From an uncultured Pseudomonadales bacterium (GTDB lineage Bacteria; Patescibacteriota; Microgenomatia; UBA1400; CAYNFZ01): DNA of 64,000 bases. The stretch spans positions 2,403-66,402 of the forward strand of contig CAYNMS010000002.1 of the NCBI GenBank assembly GCA_964398525.1, given 5' to 3'. Shown in pieces: positions 25,015 to 55,592 of this stretch (its first letter is position 1; each line of letters begins with the position of its first letter). The notes beneath the pieces were generated by a model. The model was not told the DNA's origin, made no database searches, and saw nothing but the letters and a program-made list of their open reading frames with translations. The position numbers were made by a program, and so were the translations under genes.

Positions 25015-25087
25015 AAAAGCATTGTAGCGGCTAGGAGAGCGAATCGCCAGAAGATCAATGAAGACAGGAGGCTTTATAATAGCTCTT

Positions 25088-27907
25088 ATGGACCAGTTAA
25101 AAGGAATTGAAGAATTAAATTTAGAACAAAAACAAGCAGTAGAGAATGAAGACGGACCACAACTGATTGTGGCTGGGGCGGGAACCGGAAAAACCAGAGT
25201 GATCACCGAGAAAATGAAGTGGCTAGTAGAGAGAGGATTGAAGCCGGATGAGATTTTGGCATTGACTTTTACCGAAAAAGCAGCCGAGGAAATGGTAGGA
25301 AGACTGGACACGATAATGCCACTTGGATATGAAGAGCCGTGGGTGTCGACTTTTCATAGATTTGGAGAGAGAGTGTTGAAACAAGAAGCATTGGAGATTG
25401 GACTGGATCCTTCGTACCGGATTATGACCCAACCGGAACAGTGGCTGTTGGTAAAGGAGCATTTATTTGAGTTTGAGCTTAGTTATTACCGGCCGCTAGG
25501 AAACCCCAACAAGTTTATTGGTGCTTTGATTAAATTGTTTGCCAGAGCTGGTGATGAAAATGTAAGCGCTCAAGAGATTAGAGAATATGCCAAAAGTATA
25601 AAGGGGGACGTGGAAGAAACTGAAGTGGAAAAACTGTTGGAAGTGGCGGGAGCGTATGAAAAATATAACGAATTGAAACTGAAAGAGTCGGTAATGGATT
25701 TTGGAGATTTGATTTCGTGGTGTTTGAAACTGTTTGCAGAAAGAAGCAACGTGCTGGCAAAGTATCAGGGGCAGTTTAAGCATATTTTGGTGGATGAATT
25801 TCAGGACACAAATTACGCCCAGTATCAATTGATAAAGATGCTGGCGCCGGTTGAGAAACAGCCAAATTTAACGGTAGTGGGAGATGACAGCCAATCGATA
25901 TATCGATTTAGAGGAGCGGCGATTTCTAATATTTTGAATTTTATGAGGGATTACCCTAAGGCAAAGCAAATTGTACTGACCAAAAATTACCGCTCGATTC
26001 AGCCGATTTTGGATGGAGCTTATAGATTAATCAAACAAAACGACCCGGAGACTTTGGAGGCGAAACTGGGTATTAGTAAAAACCTGATAAGCCAACGACA
26101 AGTCAAGATTGATGAGAAACCCTTGGTGGTGGAACTAGACTCGGCAGAAGAGGAAGTGGGGTGGGTGATTAAAAAAATATTCGAACTGTTGGCAAAAGGT
26201 TACAACTATAAGGATGTGGCGATTGTGGCACGAGCCAATAGTCAACTTGAGGCTTATGTGGCAGGACTGAAGCAACTGTCACTACCCTATCGAAGGGTGG
26301 GAAATAGGGGGTTGTTTGATCAGGAGGAAATAAGAGGGTTAATTAACTTTATGAGAGTGATGGTTAACCCGGAAAATAACGTAGATTTGTTTGGTTATTT
26401 GTATATGGAGGAGCTGGAACTTAACAAAAGCTTGATCCTGAAAAAGCTAACTGAGGCAAAAAGAAACCGAGTGAGTTTGTATGAATTGATTTTAAAAGAT
26501 GAGTCTTTTGGCCGAGCAGTTGAGTTGATCCGACAGGCGCAAGAGAAAATAGATGAGCAAAAAAGTAGTCAGATTTTGTTTAATTTTGTCAATGAAAGTG
26601 GTTACTTGAAAAGACTGGTGGAGAAGGAAAGCTTGGAAAATGCTTTGAAGTTGAAAAATTTGAATTTATTTTTTAGATATTTGAGAGGCTTTGAGGAAAA
26701 AACAAATTTAAGTGTAGTGGGACTGGTGGAAATGTTGGATGACTTGATGGAGGCGGGAGAAAATCCCCAGCAAGCAGAAATTGAAGATATTGACGCGATT
26801 ACTTTAACCACAGCACACAGTGCTAAGGGGTTGGAGTTTGGAGTGGTATTTATGGTGAGTTTGGTGGCCGGGAGGTTTCCGGCATATGGCAGAAGAGACC
26901 CGATTGAGTTACCCACTGATTTATTTAAAGAAAGCTTGCCTGAAGAGGATAAAACTGCGGAAGAAAGACGACTGTTTTATGTGGGTATGACTCGAGCACG
27001 CGACCGGTTGTTTTTAACCTGGGCAAAAGATTATGGAGGAGTCAGAAAAAGAAAAGCATCCGGGTTTTTGACTGAAACAGGGTTTGAAGGGATAAAAGCA
27101 GAAACAAACGGACAATTGACGTTACTGGGAATTAAACCTCAAGACCCGCCGGTGATTTATGAGGGGGAACAAGAATATAGATTGGATCACTTGAGCTATT
27201 CGCAAATTGATACGTATAAAGCCTGTCCACTAAAGTTTAAATACAGATATATCCTACAAATTCCAGCTGAACCACACCACGCTTTATCTTTTGGGAGATC
27301 GATACATGAAACACTCAAAGAGTTTCACCAGTTTGAACAAGCAGGAAGAGAGGTGAAGCGGGAAGAGTTGCTGGCGATATATGAGAAAAATTTCGTGAAA
27401 GAAGGTTATGATTCGGAACAGCACAGAAGAGAGAGGTATGAAGCTGGGAGGTTAGCGATGAGTGATTATCACAGTAAATGCAAGGAACTGTTGGGGAGGG
27501 CGTGGAGATTGGAGCAGAGCTTTAAATTAGTGATCGGTGGAATTCCCTTGATTGGCAAGATCGACAGAATTGATAAAAACGGACAAGCTTATGAAATTAT
27601 TGATTATAAGACCGGATCGGCTGGAAGAAAAGGGCAGGCAGATAAAGATGAGCAGCTGAGTATTTATGCGCTAGCGGCTCATGAGGCGTTGGGGATTGAG
27701 GCAGAGCGGCTATCGCTTTATTTTATTGAGAGCAATGAGAAAGAGGCTTCGACAAGAACGCTAAAGCAAATGGAAAAGAAGAAGGCGGACTTGGAAGGAA
27801 TGGTGGAGGAGATTAAAAGTTCGAAATTTGAACCTAAGCCAGGTAATCCCTTTCCATGCGGATTTTGTGAGTACAGAACCATATGTCCGTTTGCGGACAG
27901 GGGTTAG
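25088..27907 (+). CDS. UvrD/PcrA-family SF1 helicase fused to a C-terminal PD-(D/E)XK (Cas4/AddB-like, 4-Cys) nuclease domain
   Basis: LIVAGAGTGKT (Walker A), DEFQDTN, TAHSAKGLEF helicase motifs. C-terminus IDRIDK...IIDYKTG...CGFCEYRTICPF (RecB-nuclease motifs plus Cys cluster). Alternative start at 25058. Confidence 0.8.
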   Translation: MDQLKGIEELNLEQKQAVENEDGPQLIVAGAGTGKTRVITEKMKWLVERGLKPDEILALTFTEKAAEEMVGRLDTIMPLGYEEPWVSTFHRFGERVLKQEALEIGLDPSYRIMTQPEQWLLVKEHLFEFELSYYRPLGNPNKFIGALIKLFARAGDENVSAQEIREYAKSIKGDVEETEVEKLLEVAGAYEKYNELKLKESVMDFGDLISWCLKLFAERSNVLAKYQGQFKHILVDEFQDTNYAQYQLIKMLAPVEKQPNLTVVGDDSQSIYRFRGAAISNILNFMRDYPKAKQIVLTKNYRSIQPILDGAYRLIKQNDPETLEAKLGISKNLISQRQVKIDEKPLVVELDSAEEEVGWVIKKIFELLAKGYNYKDVAIVARANSQLEAYVAGLKQLSLPYRRVGNRGLFDQEEIRGLINFMRVMVNPENNVDLFGYLYMEELELNKSLILKKLTEAKRNRVSLYELILKDESFGRAVELIRQAQEKIDEQKSSQILFNFVNESGYLKRLVEKESLENALKLKNLNLFFRYLRGFEEKTNLSVVGLVEMLDDLMEAGENPQQAEIEDIDAITLTTAHSAKGLEFGVVFMVSLVAGRFPAYGRRDPIELPTDLFKESLPEEDKTAEERRLFYVGMTRARDRLFLTWAKDYGGVRKRKASGFLTETGFEGIKAETNGQLTLLGIKPQDPPVIYEGEQEYRLDHLSYSQIDTYKACPLKFKYRYILQIPAEPHHALSFGRSIHETLKEFHQFEQAGREVKREELLAIYEKNFVKEGYDSEQHRRERYEAGRLAMSDYHSKCKELLGRAWRLEQSFKLVIGGIPLIGKIDRIDKNGQAYEIIDYKTGSAGRKGQADKDEQLSIYALAAHEALGIEAERLSLYFIESNEKEASTRTLKQMEKKKADLEGMVEEIKSSKFEPKPGNPFPCGFCEYRTICPFADRG

Positions 27908-41891: not shown

Positions 41892-42431
41892 TTGATGGAA
41901 TGGTGGCCATGGATAATTGTGAGATTATTGGCTCCACTACTGATTTGGAAGTGGCAGTTTGTGGGAGCGTTGGTCGCAATTGTGGCTGACAACCTGGATG
42001 TAGTGGTGTGGGACGTGATGGGAGTGGAGAAGTTGAGCCAATATTACAACCCAATTGATAAAGCTTTGGATATGTGGATTTATTTGGTAGCAGGAATGGT
42101 GGTTTTAACCAAGTGGAAAAACAAGAGAGCAAAAAAAGCAGGAGTAGTGTTGTTGGTTTGGCGGTTGTTGGGGTTTTTAATTTATGAGTTAACCGGATGG
42201 CGTTATCTGCTGTTTATCTTTCCTAATTTGTTTTGGACATTCTTTGTGGTCTATACAGGCTGGATGGCAATGACAAAAAAGGATCCAATAAATTCAAGTA
42301 GGAGGCTTGGACTACTGTTGTTGGTGTTGGCAATACCAAAACTAGCACAGGAATATCTATTTCATGTAGTGGAATTTGATTTATATGGATTATTTAATGA
42401 TGTGGTTGGCTGGGTGGCTAATTTGGTTTAA
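41892..42431 (+). CDS. Hypothetical 5-TM membrane protein
   Basis: 179 aa. Trp-rich hydrophobic segments. Confidence 0.4.
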   Translation: MMEWWPWIIVRLLAPLLIWKWQFVGALVAIVADNLDVVVWDVMGVEKLSQYYNPIDKALDMWIYLVAGMVVLTKWKNKRAKKAGVVLLVWRLLGFLIYELTGWRYLLFIFPNLFWTFFVVYTGWMAMTKKDPINSSRRLGLLLLVLAIPKLAQEYLFHVVEFDLYGLFNDVVGWVANLV

Positions 42432-42443
42432 AAAAGTAGACAT

Positions 42444-42478
42444 AAAAAAACCGGGGCAAAAAGCCCCGGTTTTGTAGT
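42444..42478. terminator. Bidirectional rho-independent terminator between the membrane-protein gene (+) and groEL (-)
   Basis: accggggc-aaaaa-gccccggt perfect 8-bp stem, flanked by an A-tract upstream and T-tract downstream, so it works on both strands. Confidence 0.75.
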
Positions 42479-42490
42479 TTAAATAAACGT

Positions 42491-44122
<1,632 letters not shown>

Positions 44123-51200: not shown

Positions 51201-52280
51201 TTGAGAGTGAAAATACTAGCAATTGAAACCAGTTGTGATGAGACGGCCGCTGCGGTGGTAGAGAACACGGAAACTGGAGGAGTTAAAGTCTGGGGAGAGA
51301 TGGTGGCCTCATCGGAGGAAATGCATGTTAAAACAGGTGGGGTGGTGCCTGAGGTGGCGGCCAGAGCGCAGATGGAATCGGTGGTACCGGTGGTGAAGGA
51401 AGCGATAAAAATAGCCATGAGGGTGAAAGAGGCTTCGTTAGTTAAAGTGAATGAGTGGGTAAAAACAGAGATTGAGGTGATGGCGGTAACGGTGGGGCCA
51501 GGACTGATTGGTTCTTTGTTGGTGGGAGTGGAGACGGCGAAAGCAATGGCGCTTGCCTGGGACAAACCGTTGGTGCCAGTTAACCATTTGGTGGGACACT
51601 TGTATGCGGCTTGGGTGGAGACAGATAAGCGAGAAGTGCCGGAATTGCCAGCACTGGGGCTGGTAGTAAGTGGAGGACATACGGACTTAGTGATAATGAA
51701 TAACCATCAAGACTGGGAGTATTTGGGTGGAACCAGGGATGATGCGGCGGGTGAGTGTTTGGATAAGTGTGCCCGGATACTAGGCCTCCCCTACCCCGGA
51801 GGGCCTAATGTGGCGAACTTGGCAAGTGAATACAAGGGAGTGGAACAATTGAGATTGCTGCCAAGGCCTTTGTGGGATAGTCAAGAGCTGGATTATTCAT
51901 TCTCCGGACTTAAGGTGGCAGTAGGGCGAGAAGTGGATAAGATTAAAAAAGAAAAAGGCAGGGTGAAACAAGAGGACAAAGCTAGATTGGCGGCTGAATT
52001 GGAGGAGGCAGTAACCGAGAGTTTGATAAAAAAGGTAAAAATTGCCCTCGAGAATCACCAGCTAAAAAGTTTGATTGTGGTGGGTGGGGTGGCGGCTAAT
52101 TTGAGATTGAGAAATAGATTAAATGAGTTGGTTGACGGAAAAGCTGTTAAATTATTTTTGCCTGAGTTAAAATATTGCACAGACAATGCAGTGATGGTGG
52201 GGGCGGCGGCCTTGTTTCACTACTCCCCCGTCTCAATTGATCAAGTAAAAGCTGATCCGTCGTTGTCGCTAGAAAGTTGA
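51201..52280 (+). CDS. tsaD: tRNA N6-adenosine threonylcarbamoyltransferase TsaD
   Basis: ILAIETSCDETAAAVV, HLVGHLYA, VVGGVAAN motifs. Confidence 0.88.
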   Translation: MRVKILAIETSCDETAAAVVENTETGGVKVWGEMVASSEEMHVKTGGVVPEVAARAQMESVVPVVKEAIKIAMRVKEASLVKVNEWVKTEIEVMAVTVGPGLIGSLLVGVETAKAMALAWDKPLVPVNHLVGHLYAAWVETDKREVPELPALGLVVSGGHTDLVIMNNHQDWEYLGGTRDDAAGECLDKCARILGLPYPGGPNVANLASEYKGVEQLRLLPRPLWDSQELDYSFSGLKVAVGREVDKIKKEKGRVKQEDKARLAAELEEAVTESLIKKVKIALENHQLKSLIVVGGVAANLRLRNRLNELVDGKAVKLFLPELKYCTDNAVMVGAAALFHYSPVSIDQVKADPSLSLES

Positions 52281-52286
52281 GGAAAT

Positions 52287-52703
52287 ATGGCAATAGGAAT
52301 TGAGACAGAGCATGTTACTCCCCCAACAACAAACCATAATGAAGGTCGATTGCACAAGGCTTTTTACAGAGTAAGAAAGTTTCTAGGGTTAGAACAACAA
52401 CAAAACAAAGAGGGTGAAAGTGGTGTGTCCTCGGATAAAAGTGAAGTTGACCTGTTTGAGAATGATAAGGATGGTGTTGTGGGTGTGGCGGGATACACAC
52501 AAAATGAAGTTCGACAGATTCGAGAGTGGGCAGCTCAGGCTAGAGAACGCAATGCTGGTGTATACACACCCGAACCTAGGGTGAGCCCACAAAGACCTGG
52601 AAGATCAAGAACTGATGAGGATAAGGGTGGTTCAGTCAAAGTAGACCGGAAACAAACAAACGATTGGATCACAAGGCAAACTAGACAGGGAGGTCGTGGC
52701 TGA
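52287..52703 (+). CDS. Hypothetical small hydrophilic, Arg-rich protein
   Basis: 138 aa, low complexity, disordered-looking. 6 nt after the tsaD stop. Confidence 0.35.
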   Translation: MAIGIETEHVTPPTTNHNEGRLHKAFYRVRKFLGLEQQQNKEGESGVSSDKSEVDLFENDKDGVVGVAGYTQNEVRQIREWAAQARERNAGVYTPEPRVSPQRPGRSRTDEDKGGSVKVDRKQTNDWITRQTRQGGRG

Positions 52704-52706
52704 GTT

Positions 52707-52715
52707 TGGTATAAT
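52707..52715 (+). promoter_or_regulatory. Extended -10 promoter element (TGgTATAAT) for the valS leader
   Basis: tttggtataattgg. Perfect TATAAT with upstream TG. Confidence 0.4.
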
Positions 52716-52719
52716 TGGT

Positions 52720-52908
52720 CAAAACCAGGCTGGGAATGATGTCGCCCGGCCGTCCCGCAAGGGAGAGTGGAAGAAGAAAAGGGAAACCTGATTAGAACTT
52801 CCCGGGTAAGCCCGTAACAGCAGGAATAAGTCTGAGGTTGGTGGTTGCCAACCAAAGATCAAAGGTGGTACCTTCTCGTTAGAGAACCTTGAAGGCCATC
52901 TTTTTTTG
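52720..52908 (+). ncRNA. Structured leader, T-box-like antiterminator element upstream of the valS operon
   Basis: AAAGG-UGGUACC-UUCUC(GUUA)GAGAA-CCUUGA reproduces the T-box antiterminator layout: A1 helix, 7-nt UGGNACC bulge able to pair the tRNA ACCA end, A2 hairpin. Upstream are a 6-bp stem ggttgg/ccaacc and a GUC codon-like triplet. Followed by UUUUUUU and a GAGGAGG SD. Confidence 0.35.
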
Positions 52909-52924
52909 TAATTAGAGGAGGATT

Positions 52925-53296
52925 ATGTCAAAAATTGAGACCTATTTTGCTTCGGGTGACACTGGTAATGATAAAAATGGGAGAGTAATAAATGGAGACA
53001 CGATCCTAAATGAAAGCAGCCAAGACCAATTTGCAGCCGAGGAAGATTTTGCATCCTTATTAGAAGAAGGATTAGTTGATGGCCCACAGATTAGACCCAC
53101 AAGTCGTAGGGGTAAAAAAGAATCCTATCAGGTTTTACATGGTAGCCCAATAGTTCATCGCGATACTGATAACGAAAACAGTCGAATAGCTAAAGAGAGA
53201 GGGTCACGTGGTCGATCATTTGCTGAAGATGGTCTACCAAAATCAAAAAAGTGGCGAAGAAAAGCAAAACTCCCAAGAAGGAATGTGTATGAATAA
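52925..53296 (+). CDS. Hypothetical small basic protein (Lys/Arg-rich C-terminus) preceding valS
   Basis: 123 aa. Strong SD gaggagg 4 nt upstream. Stop overlaps the valS start region. Confidence 0.4.
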   Translation: MSKIETYFASGDTGNDKNGRVINGDTILNESSQDQFAAEEDFASLLEEGLVDGPQIRPTSRRGKKESYQVLHGSPIVHRDTDNENSRIAKERGSRGRSFAEDGLPKSKKWRRKAKLPRRNVYE

Positions 53297-55556
53297 ACAA
53301 TACAACCCACAAGAGCACGAAGGGAAAATTTACAAACAATGGGAAGAGAGTGGAGCTTTCTCCCCTACCGACAACCCCAAGGCTAAGCCTTTTTGCATCA
53401 TCATGCCGCCGCCGAATGCTAACGACCCCTTGCATGTAGGACATGCGATGTTTGTGACTCTTGAAGATATCTTGATTCGCTATCACCGAATGAAGGGAAA
53501 AGCGGCTTTGTGGTTGCCTGGCACAGACCATGCAGGGATTGAGACTCAGTTTGTGTTTGAGAAGAAACTAAAAGAGAAAGGCCAGAGCCGGTTTGATTTT
53601 GAGAGGGAAAAACTGTTTGAGATGATTTCTGAGTATGTAAAAGCTAACAGTGGTGTGGCGGTGGAGCAAATGAAGAAATTGGGGGCGAGCGCTGATTGGG
53701 GGAGGTATAAGTTTACGCTAGATGAGGATATTGTCGCCGATGTGATAGAAACGTTTGAAGAACTACATAAGGATGGAATGGTCTACAGAGACATGAGACT
53801 AGTGAATTACTGCACTAAGTGTGGGACGGCATATAGCGAACTGGAAGTGGAGCATGTGGAGAGAAAAGACCCGTTGTATTATATTGCCTACGGGCCGTTT
53901 ACTTTGGCCACAGTCAGGCCAGAGACTAAGTTTGGCGACACGGCAGTGGCGGTTAATCCAGACGACACCAGATATCAGGAATATGTGGGGCAGGAAATTG
54001 AGGTTGAAGGGCTACTGGGAAAGTTTAAGATGAAAGTGGTTGCTGATGAGTATGTAGATCGGGAGTTTGGAACGGGAGTAGTAAAGATTACTCCGGCTCA
54101 TGATCCCAATGATTACGAGGTGTGGCAAAGACATAAAGACGAAATACCCGGCCTTAAACAAGTGATTGGATTTGACGGCAAAATGAATGAATTGGCGGGA
54201 AATTATGAGGGGTTGAGTGTAGAACAGGCGCGAGTGAAAGTGGTAGCTGACCTCGAGTCTAAAGGTTTGTTAACAAAGGTTGACAAGGCTTACAAGCACA
54301 ATGTGGGGGTGTGTTACCGGTGTGGAAAGGTGTTGGAGCCGCTACCGATGCCTCAGTTTTTTGTCAAAACTGGCGAAATGACCAGGAGAGGATTGAAGGC
54401 TATGGACGAGGGAGAAGTTAAAGTATTTGGGGCGGGACACGACAAAATATTAAAACATTGGCTGACAAACCTCAAAGAATGGAATGTGTCAAGACAGATT
54501 GTGTGGGGTATTAGAATGCCGGTATGGTACGAGGTAAGTGAAGGTGATTTAAAGCCAGGAGAAGAACTGGAAGTGGTGTTTTTGGATAGCAAAGGGGAAA
54601 GCCAGTCTGGGGAAATAAGAGAGATGCTTAAAAAATTTGAGCTCAAAGAGATTGCCAGAGGGCTCCAGAGTTTGAGGGCTGGGGTGGGGGCAAAATATGT
54701 GGTCTCCCCTACCGCGCCCGGAGAAGGCTATATTCAAGAGACAGATACGTTTGATACCTGGTTTTCGTCGGCACAATGGCCTTTTGTGACGCTTAAAAAC
54801 GCTAAAGAGGGTGATTTTGAGAGGTTTTACCCCACCCAAGTAATGGAGACGGCTTATGATATTTTGATGTTTTGGGTGATGAGAATGCTCATGGTGGGAA
54901 TTTATAAAACGGGAAAAGTGCCGTTTGAGAAAGTGTACTTGCATGGTTTGATTCGAGACGAGAAAGGCAAGAAAATGAGTAAGAGTAAGGGGAATGTGAT
55001 TAACCCGCTAGATGTAGTGAGTGAATACGGAGCAGATGCGCTACGAATGGCATTGGTGATTAGATCGAGTCCTGGGTTGGATAAGAATGTGGGGGAAAGG
55101 GATTTTCGAGGCATGCGAAATTTGACGAACAAGATCTGGAACGCGTCAAGGTTTGTGATCATGAGCATGGAAGACAAAGACGTGACCGGCTCGAGTGGAG
55201 AGGGAGATGGAGAATTTAGAGAGAAACTGGATGAGATCGTGGCTTCGGTTGGCCAACAATTGGAAGACTTACGCCTAGGATTGGCGGCGGAGACGGTTTA
55301 CAACGAGTTTTGGCATTGGTTTTGTGATGAGGGAATCGAAAAGGCTAAAAAGGGTGAGGTTTCATACAAAGCACTGCTTGAAGGATTGGTGGTGTTTTTG
55401 AAACTAATGCATCCGTTTGTGCCGTTTGTGACGGAGGCAGTGTATCAAGAGTTGAAAAACAACAGAAAAGTAAAAGATGTTGGTGGAGAATGGTTGAAAT
55501 CAGAAATGTTGATTTCAGCTTTGTGGCCTGAAAGCAAAACAAAATACTCAAGTTGA
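53289..55556 (+). CDS. valS: Valyl-tRNA synthetase (short form without C-terminal coiled coil)
   Basis: PPPNANDPLHVGHA (HIGH), KMSKSKGN (KMSKS), editing-domain motifs. Start chosen at MNKQYNPQ with an AAGGA SD. The ORF-track start at 53208 is an upstream extension. Confidence 0.9.
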   Translation: MNKQYNPQEHEGKIYKQWEESGAFSPTDNPKAKPFCIIMPPPNANDPLHVGHAMFVTLEDILIRYHRMKGKAALWLPGTDHAGIETQFVFEKKLKEKGQSRFDFEREKLFEMISEYVKANSGVAVEQMKKLGASADWGRYKFTLDEDIVADVIETFEELHKDGMVYRDMRLVNYCTKCGTAYSELEVEHVERKDPLYYIAYGPFTLATVRPETKFGDTAVAVNPDDTRYQEYVGQEIEVEGLLGKFKMKVVADEYVDREFGTGVVKITPAHDPNDYEVWQRHKDEIPGLKQVIGFDGKMNELAGNYEGLSVEQARVKVVADLESKGLLTKVDKAYKHNVGVCYRCGKVLEPLPMPQFFVKTGEMTRRGLKAMDEGEVKVFGAGHDKILKHWLTNLKEWNVSRQIVWGIRMPVWYEVSEGDLKPGEELEVVFLDSKGESQSGEIREMLKKFELKEIARGLQSLRAGVGAKYVVSPTAPGEGYIQETDTFDTWFSSAQWPFVTLKNAKEGDFERFYPTQVMETAYDILMFWVMRMLMVGIYKTGKVPFEKVYLHGLIRDEKGKKMSKSKGNVINPLDVVSEYGADALRMALVIRSSPGLDKNVGERDFRGMRNLTNKIWNASRFVIMSMEDKDVTGSSGEGDGEFREKLDEIVASVGQQLEDLRLGLAAETVYNEFWHWFCDEGIEKAKKGEVSYKALLEGLVVFLKLMHPFVPFVTEAVYQELKNNRKVKDVGGEWLKSEMLISALWPESKTKYSS

Positions 55557-55572: not shown

Positions 55573-55592
55573 GGCGCCGGATGTCCGGCGCC
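55573..55592. terminator. GC-rich hairpin between valS (+) and rplY (-); terminator for rplY, possibly bidirectional
   Basis: ggcgccgg-atgt-ccggcgcc 8-bp stem. On the minus strand it is followed by TTTTTGTTTC. Confidence 0.6.

Follow-up and report, generated by a model that had tools for sequence, protein, structure and literature searches.

We analysed a 64-kb stretch of DNA (the window, with positions counted from its first base) from the genome of a member of the Patescibacteria (Microgenomates/OP11), and focused on the leader, about 200 nt long, that precedes a small open reading frame (ORF2) and valS, the gene of valyl-tRNA synthetase (ValRS). As judged from its sequence and that of its relatives, the leader is a stripped-down, valine-specific T-box riboswitch. 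We consider it probable, at about 0.7, that an extended -10 promoter drives a valine-specific T-box with a truncated Stem I, which terminates transcription and controls the two-gene unit ORF2-valS. This reading is built on leader homology, covarying structure, the conserved specifier and bulge, the conserved terminator wiring, fold energies and the synteny of ORF2 and valS, from which we infer tRNA binding, termination at a run of seven uridines (U7) and translational coupling. Related loci used for comparison carry labels of the form L084.

The initial annotation of this DNA, made from the letters alone, had taken the segment for a T-box leader of valS and had suggested a search with the Rfam T-box model RF00230. 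In a 1.2-kb search, this model aligned over its full length to 52709-52893 (E-value (E) 0.018), but the score of 21.9 bits was sub-threshold. A covariance model (R1) was then built from the leader of L084 alone, with the structure assigned by hand. Against both strands of the 64-kb window, R1 gave a single match, at 52725-52893, over the full model length (83.8 bits, E 2.8e-24). A sequence-only version of R1 scored the window leader at 47.4 bits, indicating that structure adds about 36 bits. Over 820 kb from 86 sources, R1 returned nine matches, all of them on the + strand and directly upstream of valS or of ORF2-valS.

The 80 ValRS relatives that we retained all came from Patescibacteria-type metagenome-assembled genomes (MAGs). 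The window ValRS shares 50-66% identity with Patescibacteria ValRS, the closest (66%) being encoded by a Candidatus Chisholmbacteria MAG. A first motif pattern, GGNTGGNACC, missed most leaders including that of the window, and TGGNACC was used instead. UGGUACC within an AAGG...CCUU-type helix was found upstream of valS in 11 of the 80 related valS loci, and L084, found through the ORF2 search, is a twelfth T-box case. RF00230 scored four of the related leaders in a 66-kb search (E 2e-6 to 1e-2) at 43.8 (L055), 36.6 (L041), 36.0 (L001) and 29.6 bits (L005).

Covariation was evaluated on an R1 alignment of nine related leaders. In this alignment, which was fitted to R1 and thereby inflates pairing, 93.9% of the pair cells held standard pairs as compared with 67.4% in shuffles, and two-sided changes were found in 39 of the 46 base pairs. 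None of 500 shuffles matched the observed pairing and covariation values, and pairing fell to 32-53% when the partners were slid by 1-3 columns. Double changes in Stem I, Stem II, Stem III and the antiterminator helices A1 and A2 were also evident in the raw sequences. MAFFT with RNAalifold on seven leaders misaligned the helices and recovered only the invariant IIA hairpin, and this approach was replaced by R1. Variation within populations was uninformative: same-species contigs (L087-L091) were 99.99-100% identical, and the L005-like leaders differed by one single-nucleotide polymorphism. Taken together, the R1 match, the covariation, the specifier and the bulge bear out the T-box assignment. 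Because the Rfam threshold misses these leaders entirely, riboswitch censuses of Patescibacteria probably under-count.

The elements of the leader are as follows, where MFE is minimum free energy and SD is Shine-Dalgarno sequence:

52707-52715, + strand: extended -10 promoter TGGTATAAT, by sequence reading.
52728-52751, + strand: ultrashort Stem I, GGCUGGG / loop AAUGAUGUCG / CCCGGCC, from the MFE fold and the R1 match.
52741-52743, + strand: specifier GUC (Val) in the Stem I terminal loop; the next base is the purine G52744.
52753-52764, + strand: extra hairpin P1.1, UCCC-GCAA-GGGA, between Stem I and Stem II, from the MFE fold and the R1 match.
52769-52802, + strand: Stem II, with outer helix GGAAG/CUUCC and inner AGG-GAAA-CCU, from the MFE fold and the R1 match.
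52803-52819, + strand: Stem IIA hairpin CGGG-UAAG-CCCG, then F-box-like GUAACA (CGGG-UAAG-CCCGUAACA), aligned to the IIA/F-box of RF00230.
52830-52859, + strand: Stem III, GUCU-GA-GGUUGGU-GGUU-GCCAACC-AA-AGAU, from the MFE fold and the R1 match.
52861-52890, + strand: discriminator/antiterminator, with A1 AAGG (52862-65)/CCUU (52887-90) and A2 UUCUC-GUUA-GAGAA (52873-86).
52866-52872, + strand: T-box bulge UGGUACC, 7 nt, between A1 and A2.
52861-52907, + strand: terminator-like hairpin, AAAGGUGG(UA)CCUUC ... GAAGGCCAUCUUU, into U7; MFE of 52858-52908.
52891-52900, + strand: 3'-side segment of the terminator, GAAGGCCAUC, just before U7.
52901-52907, + strand: U7 tract, 7 nt upstream of the SD.
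52914-52921, + strand: SD of ORF2, AGAGGAGG, by sequence reading.

Transcription would start near 52721-52723. All 12 homologous leaders have a TAnAAT -10 element whose end precedes GUC by 18-43 nt (26 nt in the window), and seven of these elements carry a TGn extension. This spacing implies that the transcript begins just before the hairpin, leaving no room for a long Stem I. A simple promoter scan did not flag TGGTATAAT, because it has no -35 element. The 7-bp Stem I helix covaries in 7/7 pairs with 100% of its cells paired, and its strands differ in all relatives (GAUAGG/CCUGUC, UCGGU/ACCGA, CGAGG/CUUCG, AGAG/CUCU and others). The GUN triplet that had been expected in a Stem I loop proved to be GUC: in 11 relatives, each time in front of valS, GUC and a following purine (A/G) lie within a short hairpin's terminal loop, and the relatives' loop is mostly 7 nt long (NUNGUCA). 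The specifier is not clear-cut in L005, and in L058 it may be GUG. No long Stem I having an AG bulge and a distal-loop platform for docking the tRNA elbow was found; RF00230 aligns 44 nt here versus 82 in the model. Neither the window nor L084 shows a recognisable K-turn (GA motif) at the foot of Stem I. A GC-NNU-GA ... GA-GC arrangement can be read in the sequences of L041, L068, L073, L077, L078 and L080.

Very small valS T-boxes were observed at L041:1815-1927 and L073:3819-3945, with 39 nt between GUC and UGGUACC and without Stem II or IIA/B. At about 113 nt in all, the L041 leader carries an SD sequestrator; its Rfam score is 36.6 bits. These two may be among the smallest natural T-boxes, provided that they function.

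Downstream of Stem I, P1.1 shows two-sided changes in four of its five pairs. A hairpin between Stem I and Stem II, with compensatory changes, was also observed in L084, L055, L001, L007 and L058. In Stem II, all nine pairs covary, and the internal loops are formed by the S-turn-like purine strings AAGAAA and GAUUAGAA. The block CGGGnAnGCCCGU of Stem IIA is invariant in seven leaders; CGGG-UAAG-CCCGUAA is conserved, and no partner strand for a IIB pseudoknot was found. Stem III, directly 5' of the discriminator, has two-sided changes in 8 of 10 pairs. The bulge UGGUACC is invariant in 13 leaders, and A1 and A2 both covary among the nine aligned leaders. The antiterminator (AAGG / UGGUACC / UUCUC-GUUA-GAGAA / CCUU, 52862-52890) agrees with the one drawn initially from the sequence, and its computed energy is -6.3 to -7.1 kcal/mol.

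The unit that follows the leader consists of two genes:

52925-53296, + strand: ORF2, 123 aa, an open frame with homologues.
53289-55556, + strand: valS, 755 aa, Pfam tRNA-synt_1 (E 4e-116) plus Anticodon_1.

As had been noticed initially, ORF2 ends inside the start of valS: its end, including the stop codon, overlaps the valS ATG at 53289 by 8 nt (TGTATGAATAA). A homologue of 123 aa (35% identical, E 2e-6) lies in the same place in L005, and phmmer over 1.8 billion cluster representatives identified six relatives of 74-100 aa (E 7e-10 to 2e-4). A word-indexed search of 5.8 billion proteins returned ORF2 itself only. For metagenome scanning, the alignment of all eight ORF2 relatives was too divergent, and a four-sequence alignment found only two loci. 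The family shares the core Y-x-V-L-H-G-x-P-x-[IV]-H-R-D-T-x-N-x-N-x-x-I-A-x-x-R-G-x-R-G ... S-K-K-x-x-R-K-x-K, with a variable and often acidic N-terminus. In all eight contexts, valS lies immediately downstream of the family member and starts within a few bases of its stop or overlaps it. The pair occurs with a T-box in the window, L005/L092 and L084, and without one in L081/82, L083, L085/86 and L097; a divergent ruvC directly precedes the ORF2 homologue in L081, L083 and L085. None of the eight members had a significant match in Pfam, NCBIfam or PDB (best PDB E-value 0.21). AlphaFold models ORF2 as largely disordered, with two short helices (predicted local distance difference test score, pLDDT, 58.9), and this model is too poor for a fold search; the basic tail S-K-K-x-x-R-K-x-K is predicted as a short helix. 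From its sequence conservation, ORF2 is a real, uncharacterised, valS-linked gene for a small basic protein. Our leading guess, held with low confidence, is that the product might act as a tRNA- or ValRS-binding helper, since the SKKxxRKxK tail recalls lysine-rich tRNA-binding appendages.

An unlikely alternative is that ORF2 serves as a translated spacer which delivers ribosomes to valS and whose peptide has no function of its own. This would fit the conserved overlap or near-abutment of the ORF2 stop and the valS start, the disordered model, the low codon-usage score and the lack of conservation in the N-terminal half, as well as the unrelated 20-codon upstream ORF that occupies the same position in L007. 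However, the core of about 60 residues remains 35-58% identical with ten invariant residues where ValRS has diverged to about 52-64% identity, and the family persists with or without the T-box. The ORF2 family is a conserved unannotated partner gene of valS, which suggests an accessory factor of an essential enzyme in minimal-genome organisms. The L007 ORF itself (L007:3936-3998, MPYMNLNEIIVFGLTFQDDV) follows a canonical T-box terminator, has AAGGAGGG as a strong SD and stops 2 nt short of the valS ATG. In the databases, JGI and Logan gene calls are the only source of the exact ORF2 protein, and NCBI has the exact ORF1 protein (the ORF upstream of the leader, described below). The restriction of exact ORF2 to JGI and Logan calls suggests that the deposited annotation of this genome missed ORF2 or called a different start.

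We then considered how the leader would act on this unit. The extended hairpin is the MFE structure of 52858-52908 at -13.9 kcal/mol, compared with about -7 kcal/mol for the antiterminator, so that the mutually exclusive OFF fold is the more stable one in the window. The 5' strand of this hairpin is the T-box strand itself (A1-5', bulge and A2-5'). In a wiring test, the A1-5'/bulge/A2-5' strand was forbidden from pairing and the remaining fold energy was computed. With this strand blocked, only -2.6 kcal/mol was left in the window, and the leaders fell into two groups:

Group A (window, L084, L001, L005): -2.6 to -8.5 kcal/mol with the T-box 5' strand blocked, and no hairpin next to the U-tract.
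Group B (L007, L058, L068, L073, L077, L080): -21 to -30 kcal/mol with the T-box 5' strand blocked; canonical terminators are retained.

In the four group A leaders, the ACC of the bulge and the 5' strand of A2 pair with the bases just before U7-U8, and these sequences differ among the leaders. The AAGAAA and (A)GUAGAA strings of Stem II are conserved in both leader groups. A canonical terminator formed from the 3' strands of A1 and A2 was considered for the window and rejected on the -2.6 kcal/mol left in the wiring test. As a separate observation, a cis CCA at 52896-98 can pair with the UGG of the bulge (52866-68) as the 3' CCA of a tRNA would, resembling a mimic of the ligand end; it is present in the window only and not in L084, L001 or L005. 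Hairpin-plus-U terminators are used elsewhere in the genome, for example at 55573-55592 between valS and the L25 gene. Since the T-box-strand hairpin and the U-tract are shared by group A and the genome uses terminators of this type, we favour transcription attenuation for the window leader.

In the proposed mechanism, the GAC anticodon of tRNA-Val would pair with the GUC specifier in the short Stem I loop, with help from the IIA/F-box and the S-turn purines in Stem II. In T-boxes, position 4 of the bulge complements the discriminator base of the tRNA, which for tRNA-Val is A73. The 3' ACCA of uncharged tRNA would pair with the UGGU of the 7-nt bulge and stabilise the weak antiterminator (A1 and A2). 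RNA polymerase would then read through, with ORF2 translated from its strong SD and valS partly by coupling via the 8-nt overlap. With charged tRNA, the more stable hairpin would form instead, in which A1-5'/bulge/A2-5' pairs with GAAGGCCAUCUUU, and transcription would stop in U7.

The initial annotation had proposed a translational sequestrator variant in which ACCUUCUC pairs with the SD. In a broader form, the leader would be a mainly translational T-box, with the SD of ORF2 sequestered by ACCUUCUC or by the CAUCUUUUUUU tract in the absence of uncharged tRNA, and with the U7 hairpin a poor terminator. The pairing itself can be formed: CCUUCUC (52871-77) and GAGGAGG (52915-21) make 7 bp including one G-U, worth -8.2 kcal/mol alone and -15.8 kcal/mol as an enforced fold. 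Moreover, the full-length MFE structure pairs the U-tract with the SD, and the ultrashort-Stem-I T-boxes described so far are all translational (PMC7583486). In L041 and L055, which have no terminator, the CCUUU of A1 pairs with GGAGG as a classical sequestrator; SD sequestration was observed in no other relative. In L084 and L001 the start codon directly follows the U-tract, so that the hairpin there would occlude the ribosome site too. However, these same two leaders have no SD after the U-tract, and ACCUUCUC:SD pairing is impossible in them and therefore cannot be conserved; it is one of several near-isoenergetic folds of the window, whereas the conserved alternative is the hairpin, which ends exactly at U7-U8 in the four closest leaders. 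A U-tract:SD pairing would hide the SD in just the state that is meant to be ON, with the antiterminator formed, and so makes no coherent switch, and in six short-Stem-I relatives the terminators are canonical and strong (-21 to -30 kcal/mol, followed by a U-run). We therefore regard mainly translational control of ORF2-valS as quite unlikely.

That the leader is a decaying, non-functional T-box remnant with constitutive ORF2-valS expression is very improbable: the sub-threshold Rfam score, the atypical 10-nt Stem I loop and the occurrence of a T-box in only about 12 of 81 related valS loci (none in the ORF2-valS units L081, L083 and L085 or in the close relative L002) would agree with decay, but compensatory changes have preserved every helix in lineages with no more than 50-66% ValRS identity, the bulge, specifier and S-turn strings are invariant, and the energies of terminator and antiterminator stand in the relation that a working switch needs.

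Several results weigh against a transcriptional T-box in the window. The gathering score of RF00230 is 93, well above what the leader reaches, and the model was not listed at E<=5 in a scan of the whole window. At gathering thresholds, Rfam returned one tRNA only over the window. No tRNA-Val was found in the window or in 60 related loci, the sole tRNA of the window being tRNA-Cys (anticodon GCA from the Rfam alignment). The fitting of the covariation alignment to R1 belongs here as well. Transcriptional T-boxes generally need a long Stem I (PMC7583486). The terminator of the window is irregular, containing internal loops, a bulge of 2 nt and three A-U pairs formed with the U-tract, and a simple terminator scan did not call the hairpin before U7, because its loop exceeds the limit of the tool. 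In the full-length RNA, the terminator, the antiterminator with U-tract:SD pairing and the CCUUCUC:GAGGAGG fold all lie between -14.8 and -16.9 kcal/mol, so that thermodynamics alone does not decide between transcriptional and translational control. The T-box-strand terminator wiring is known from four sequences only.

A wider proposal is that Microgenomates carry an uncatalogued T-box lineage that is transcriptional without contact to the tRNA elbow, that includes a sub-group whose terminator competes for the T-box strand and bulge, and that co-regulates a small basic tRNA- or ValRS-binding helper of a short ValRS. We regard this combination as possible and put it forward only tentatively, as rather doubtful in its entirety.

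Upstream of the leader lie a further gene and an ORF:

51201-52280, + strand: tsaD, Pfam TsaD (E 1e-77).
52287-52703, + strand: ORF1, 138 aa, an open frame with the SD GAGGAAA.

The extended -10, the leader, the U7 tract, the SD and the two small ORFs are all present where they had been placed initially. The two ORFs, which had been presented as a pair flanking the leader, are not equivalent: ORF2 is conserved and tied to valS, whereas ORF1 has no detectable relative. ORF1 gave no Pfam match, identical copies only in the search of 5.8 billion proteins, and no tblastn match in the 86 related loci. A hydrophilic ORF of 119 aa was observed in the ORF1 slot at L005:146-505 / L092:696-1055, in the order tsaD - ORF - T-box - ORF2-like - valS; BLASTP detected no similarity between ORF1 and this syntenic ORF of L005 (E 1.5). 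L084 and L001 have no ORF at this position, and a stop-codon/promoter arrangement that ORF1 and L084 seemed to have in common was discarded, as no ORF stands behind it in L084. In codon usage, the own frame of ORF1 was the best of three with a score far below that of ordinary genes, and ORF2 was likewise low; as this holds even for the validated ORF2, codon usage cannot tell either ORF from non-coding sequence. By our own estimate, a 138-codon open frame would fill the whole gap by chance with a probability of about 1e-3. ORF1 is a hydrophilic orphan and a putative coding sequence. It is not part of the T-box-regulated unit, because it lies upstream of the promoter.

Across the window (1-64000), the GC skew of the + strand is extreme, at +0.31 overall and without a sign change in 64 kb. 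Third codon positions show a skew of +0.51 in ORFs of the + strand, and of -0.56 in ORFs of the - strand when these are read along their coding strand. Because the third-position skew keeps its strand sign in + and - ORFs, the skew is mutational and does not depend on gene orientation. About two thirds of the long ORFs sit on the C-rich strand. Two further weak Rfam matches were recorded. RF03531 (n00280, 'C. difficile sRNA included into helicase gene') matched 26932-27030 (+) with 47.2 bits (E 1e-4), short of its gathering score of 65.2; the match falls within a 949-aa ORF (25058-27907) and is probably due to conserved coding sequence. Termite-leu RNA matched 42413-42489 (+) at 24.4 bits against 51 (E 0.61), adjoining the 3' end of a - strand ORF (42491-44113), and this match is probably due to chance.

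T-boxes are usually thought of as Firmicute and Actinobacterial devices. In the searchable literature, we found no paper that joins T-boxes with the candidate phyla radiation (CPR) or Patescibacteria, which is suggestive only, as coverage is incomplete. Class IIb synthetases have an N-terminal helix motif xSKxxLKKxxK. Lysine-rich tRNA-binding appendages have been described in general terms for eukaryotic synthetases (PMC8319005). ORF2 resembles such appendages, and trans-acting helpers of synthetases, in its conserved basic tail and in being encoded, and putatively co-regulated, with a synthetase; unlike them, ORF2 is free-standing, bacterial and upstream of a class I enzyme, and we take the resemblance as a lead only.

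The canonical T-boxes (RF00230; Bacillus subtilis tyrS and glyQS) share with the window leader an antiterminator stabilised by tRNA versus a more stable terminator with a U-tract, the same bulge sequence and a specifier that matches the regulated aminoacyl-tRNA synthetase. Unlike them, the window leader has neither a long Stem I nor a tRNA-elbow contact, and scores 21.9 against 93 bits in Rfam. The 5' side of a canonical T-box terminator is built from the 3' strands of A1 and A2 (PMC7583486), whereas that of the window terminator is built from the 5' strands of A1 and A2 together with the bulge.

An ultrashort Stem I has been described for the translational ileS T-boxes of Actinobacteria (PMC7583486, PMC11297988), with Mycobacterium tuberculosis and M. 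smegmatis ileS as the examples named in these reviews' summaries of Sherwood, Grundy & Henkin 2015. The class II model of TBDB was searched in Actinobacteria only (PMC7778990). Similar to these T-boxes, the window leader has a short Stem I hairpin with the specifier in its terminal loop and no distal platform for the tRNA elbow, followed by a Stem II with purine strings, a Stem IIA hairpin with an F-box-like element, Stem III and an A1/bulge/A2 element with UGGNACC. It differs from them in its Patescibacteria/Microgenomates host, in preceding valS with GUC rather than ileS with AUC, in having a terminator-like hairpin and U7 instead of an SD sequestrator, in its OFF-state hairpin that uses the T-box 5' strand, and in P1.1; as described in the reviews, neither canonical nor actinobacterial ileS T-boxes have a P1.1-like hairpin (PMC7583486, PMC11297988).

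Computed from few sequences, the more novel parts of the window leader and its unit are an ultrashort Stem I with a putative transcriptional role, a terminator formed by the T-box strand and the candidate helper ORF2. In current reviews, the long Stem I, with its contact to the tRNA elbow, is linked to the speed that a transcriptional decision demands, and the ultrashort Stem I to slower translational control. The valS leaders of these candidate phyla appear to pair an ultrashort Stem I with terminators, and one sub-group swaps the strand that is common to the ON and OFF folds. Such leaders would be natural test cases for the kinetic argument and for the minimal requirements of a T-box.

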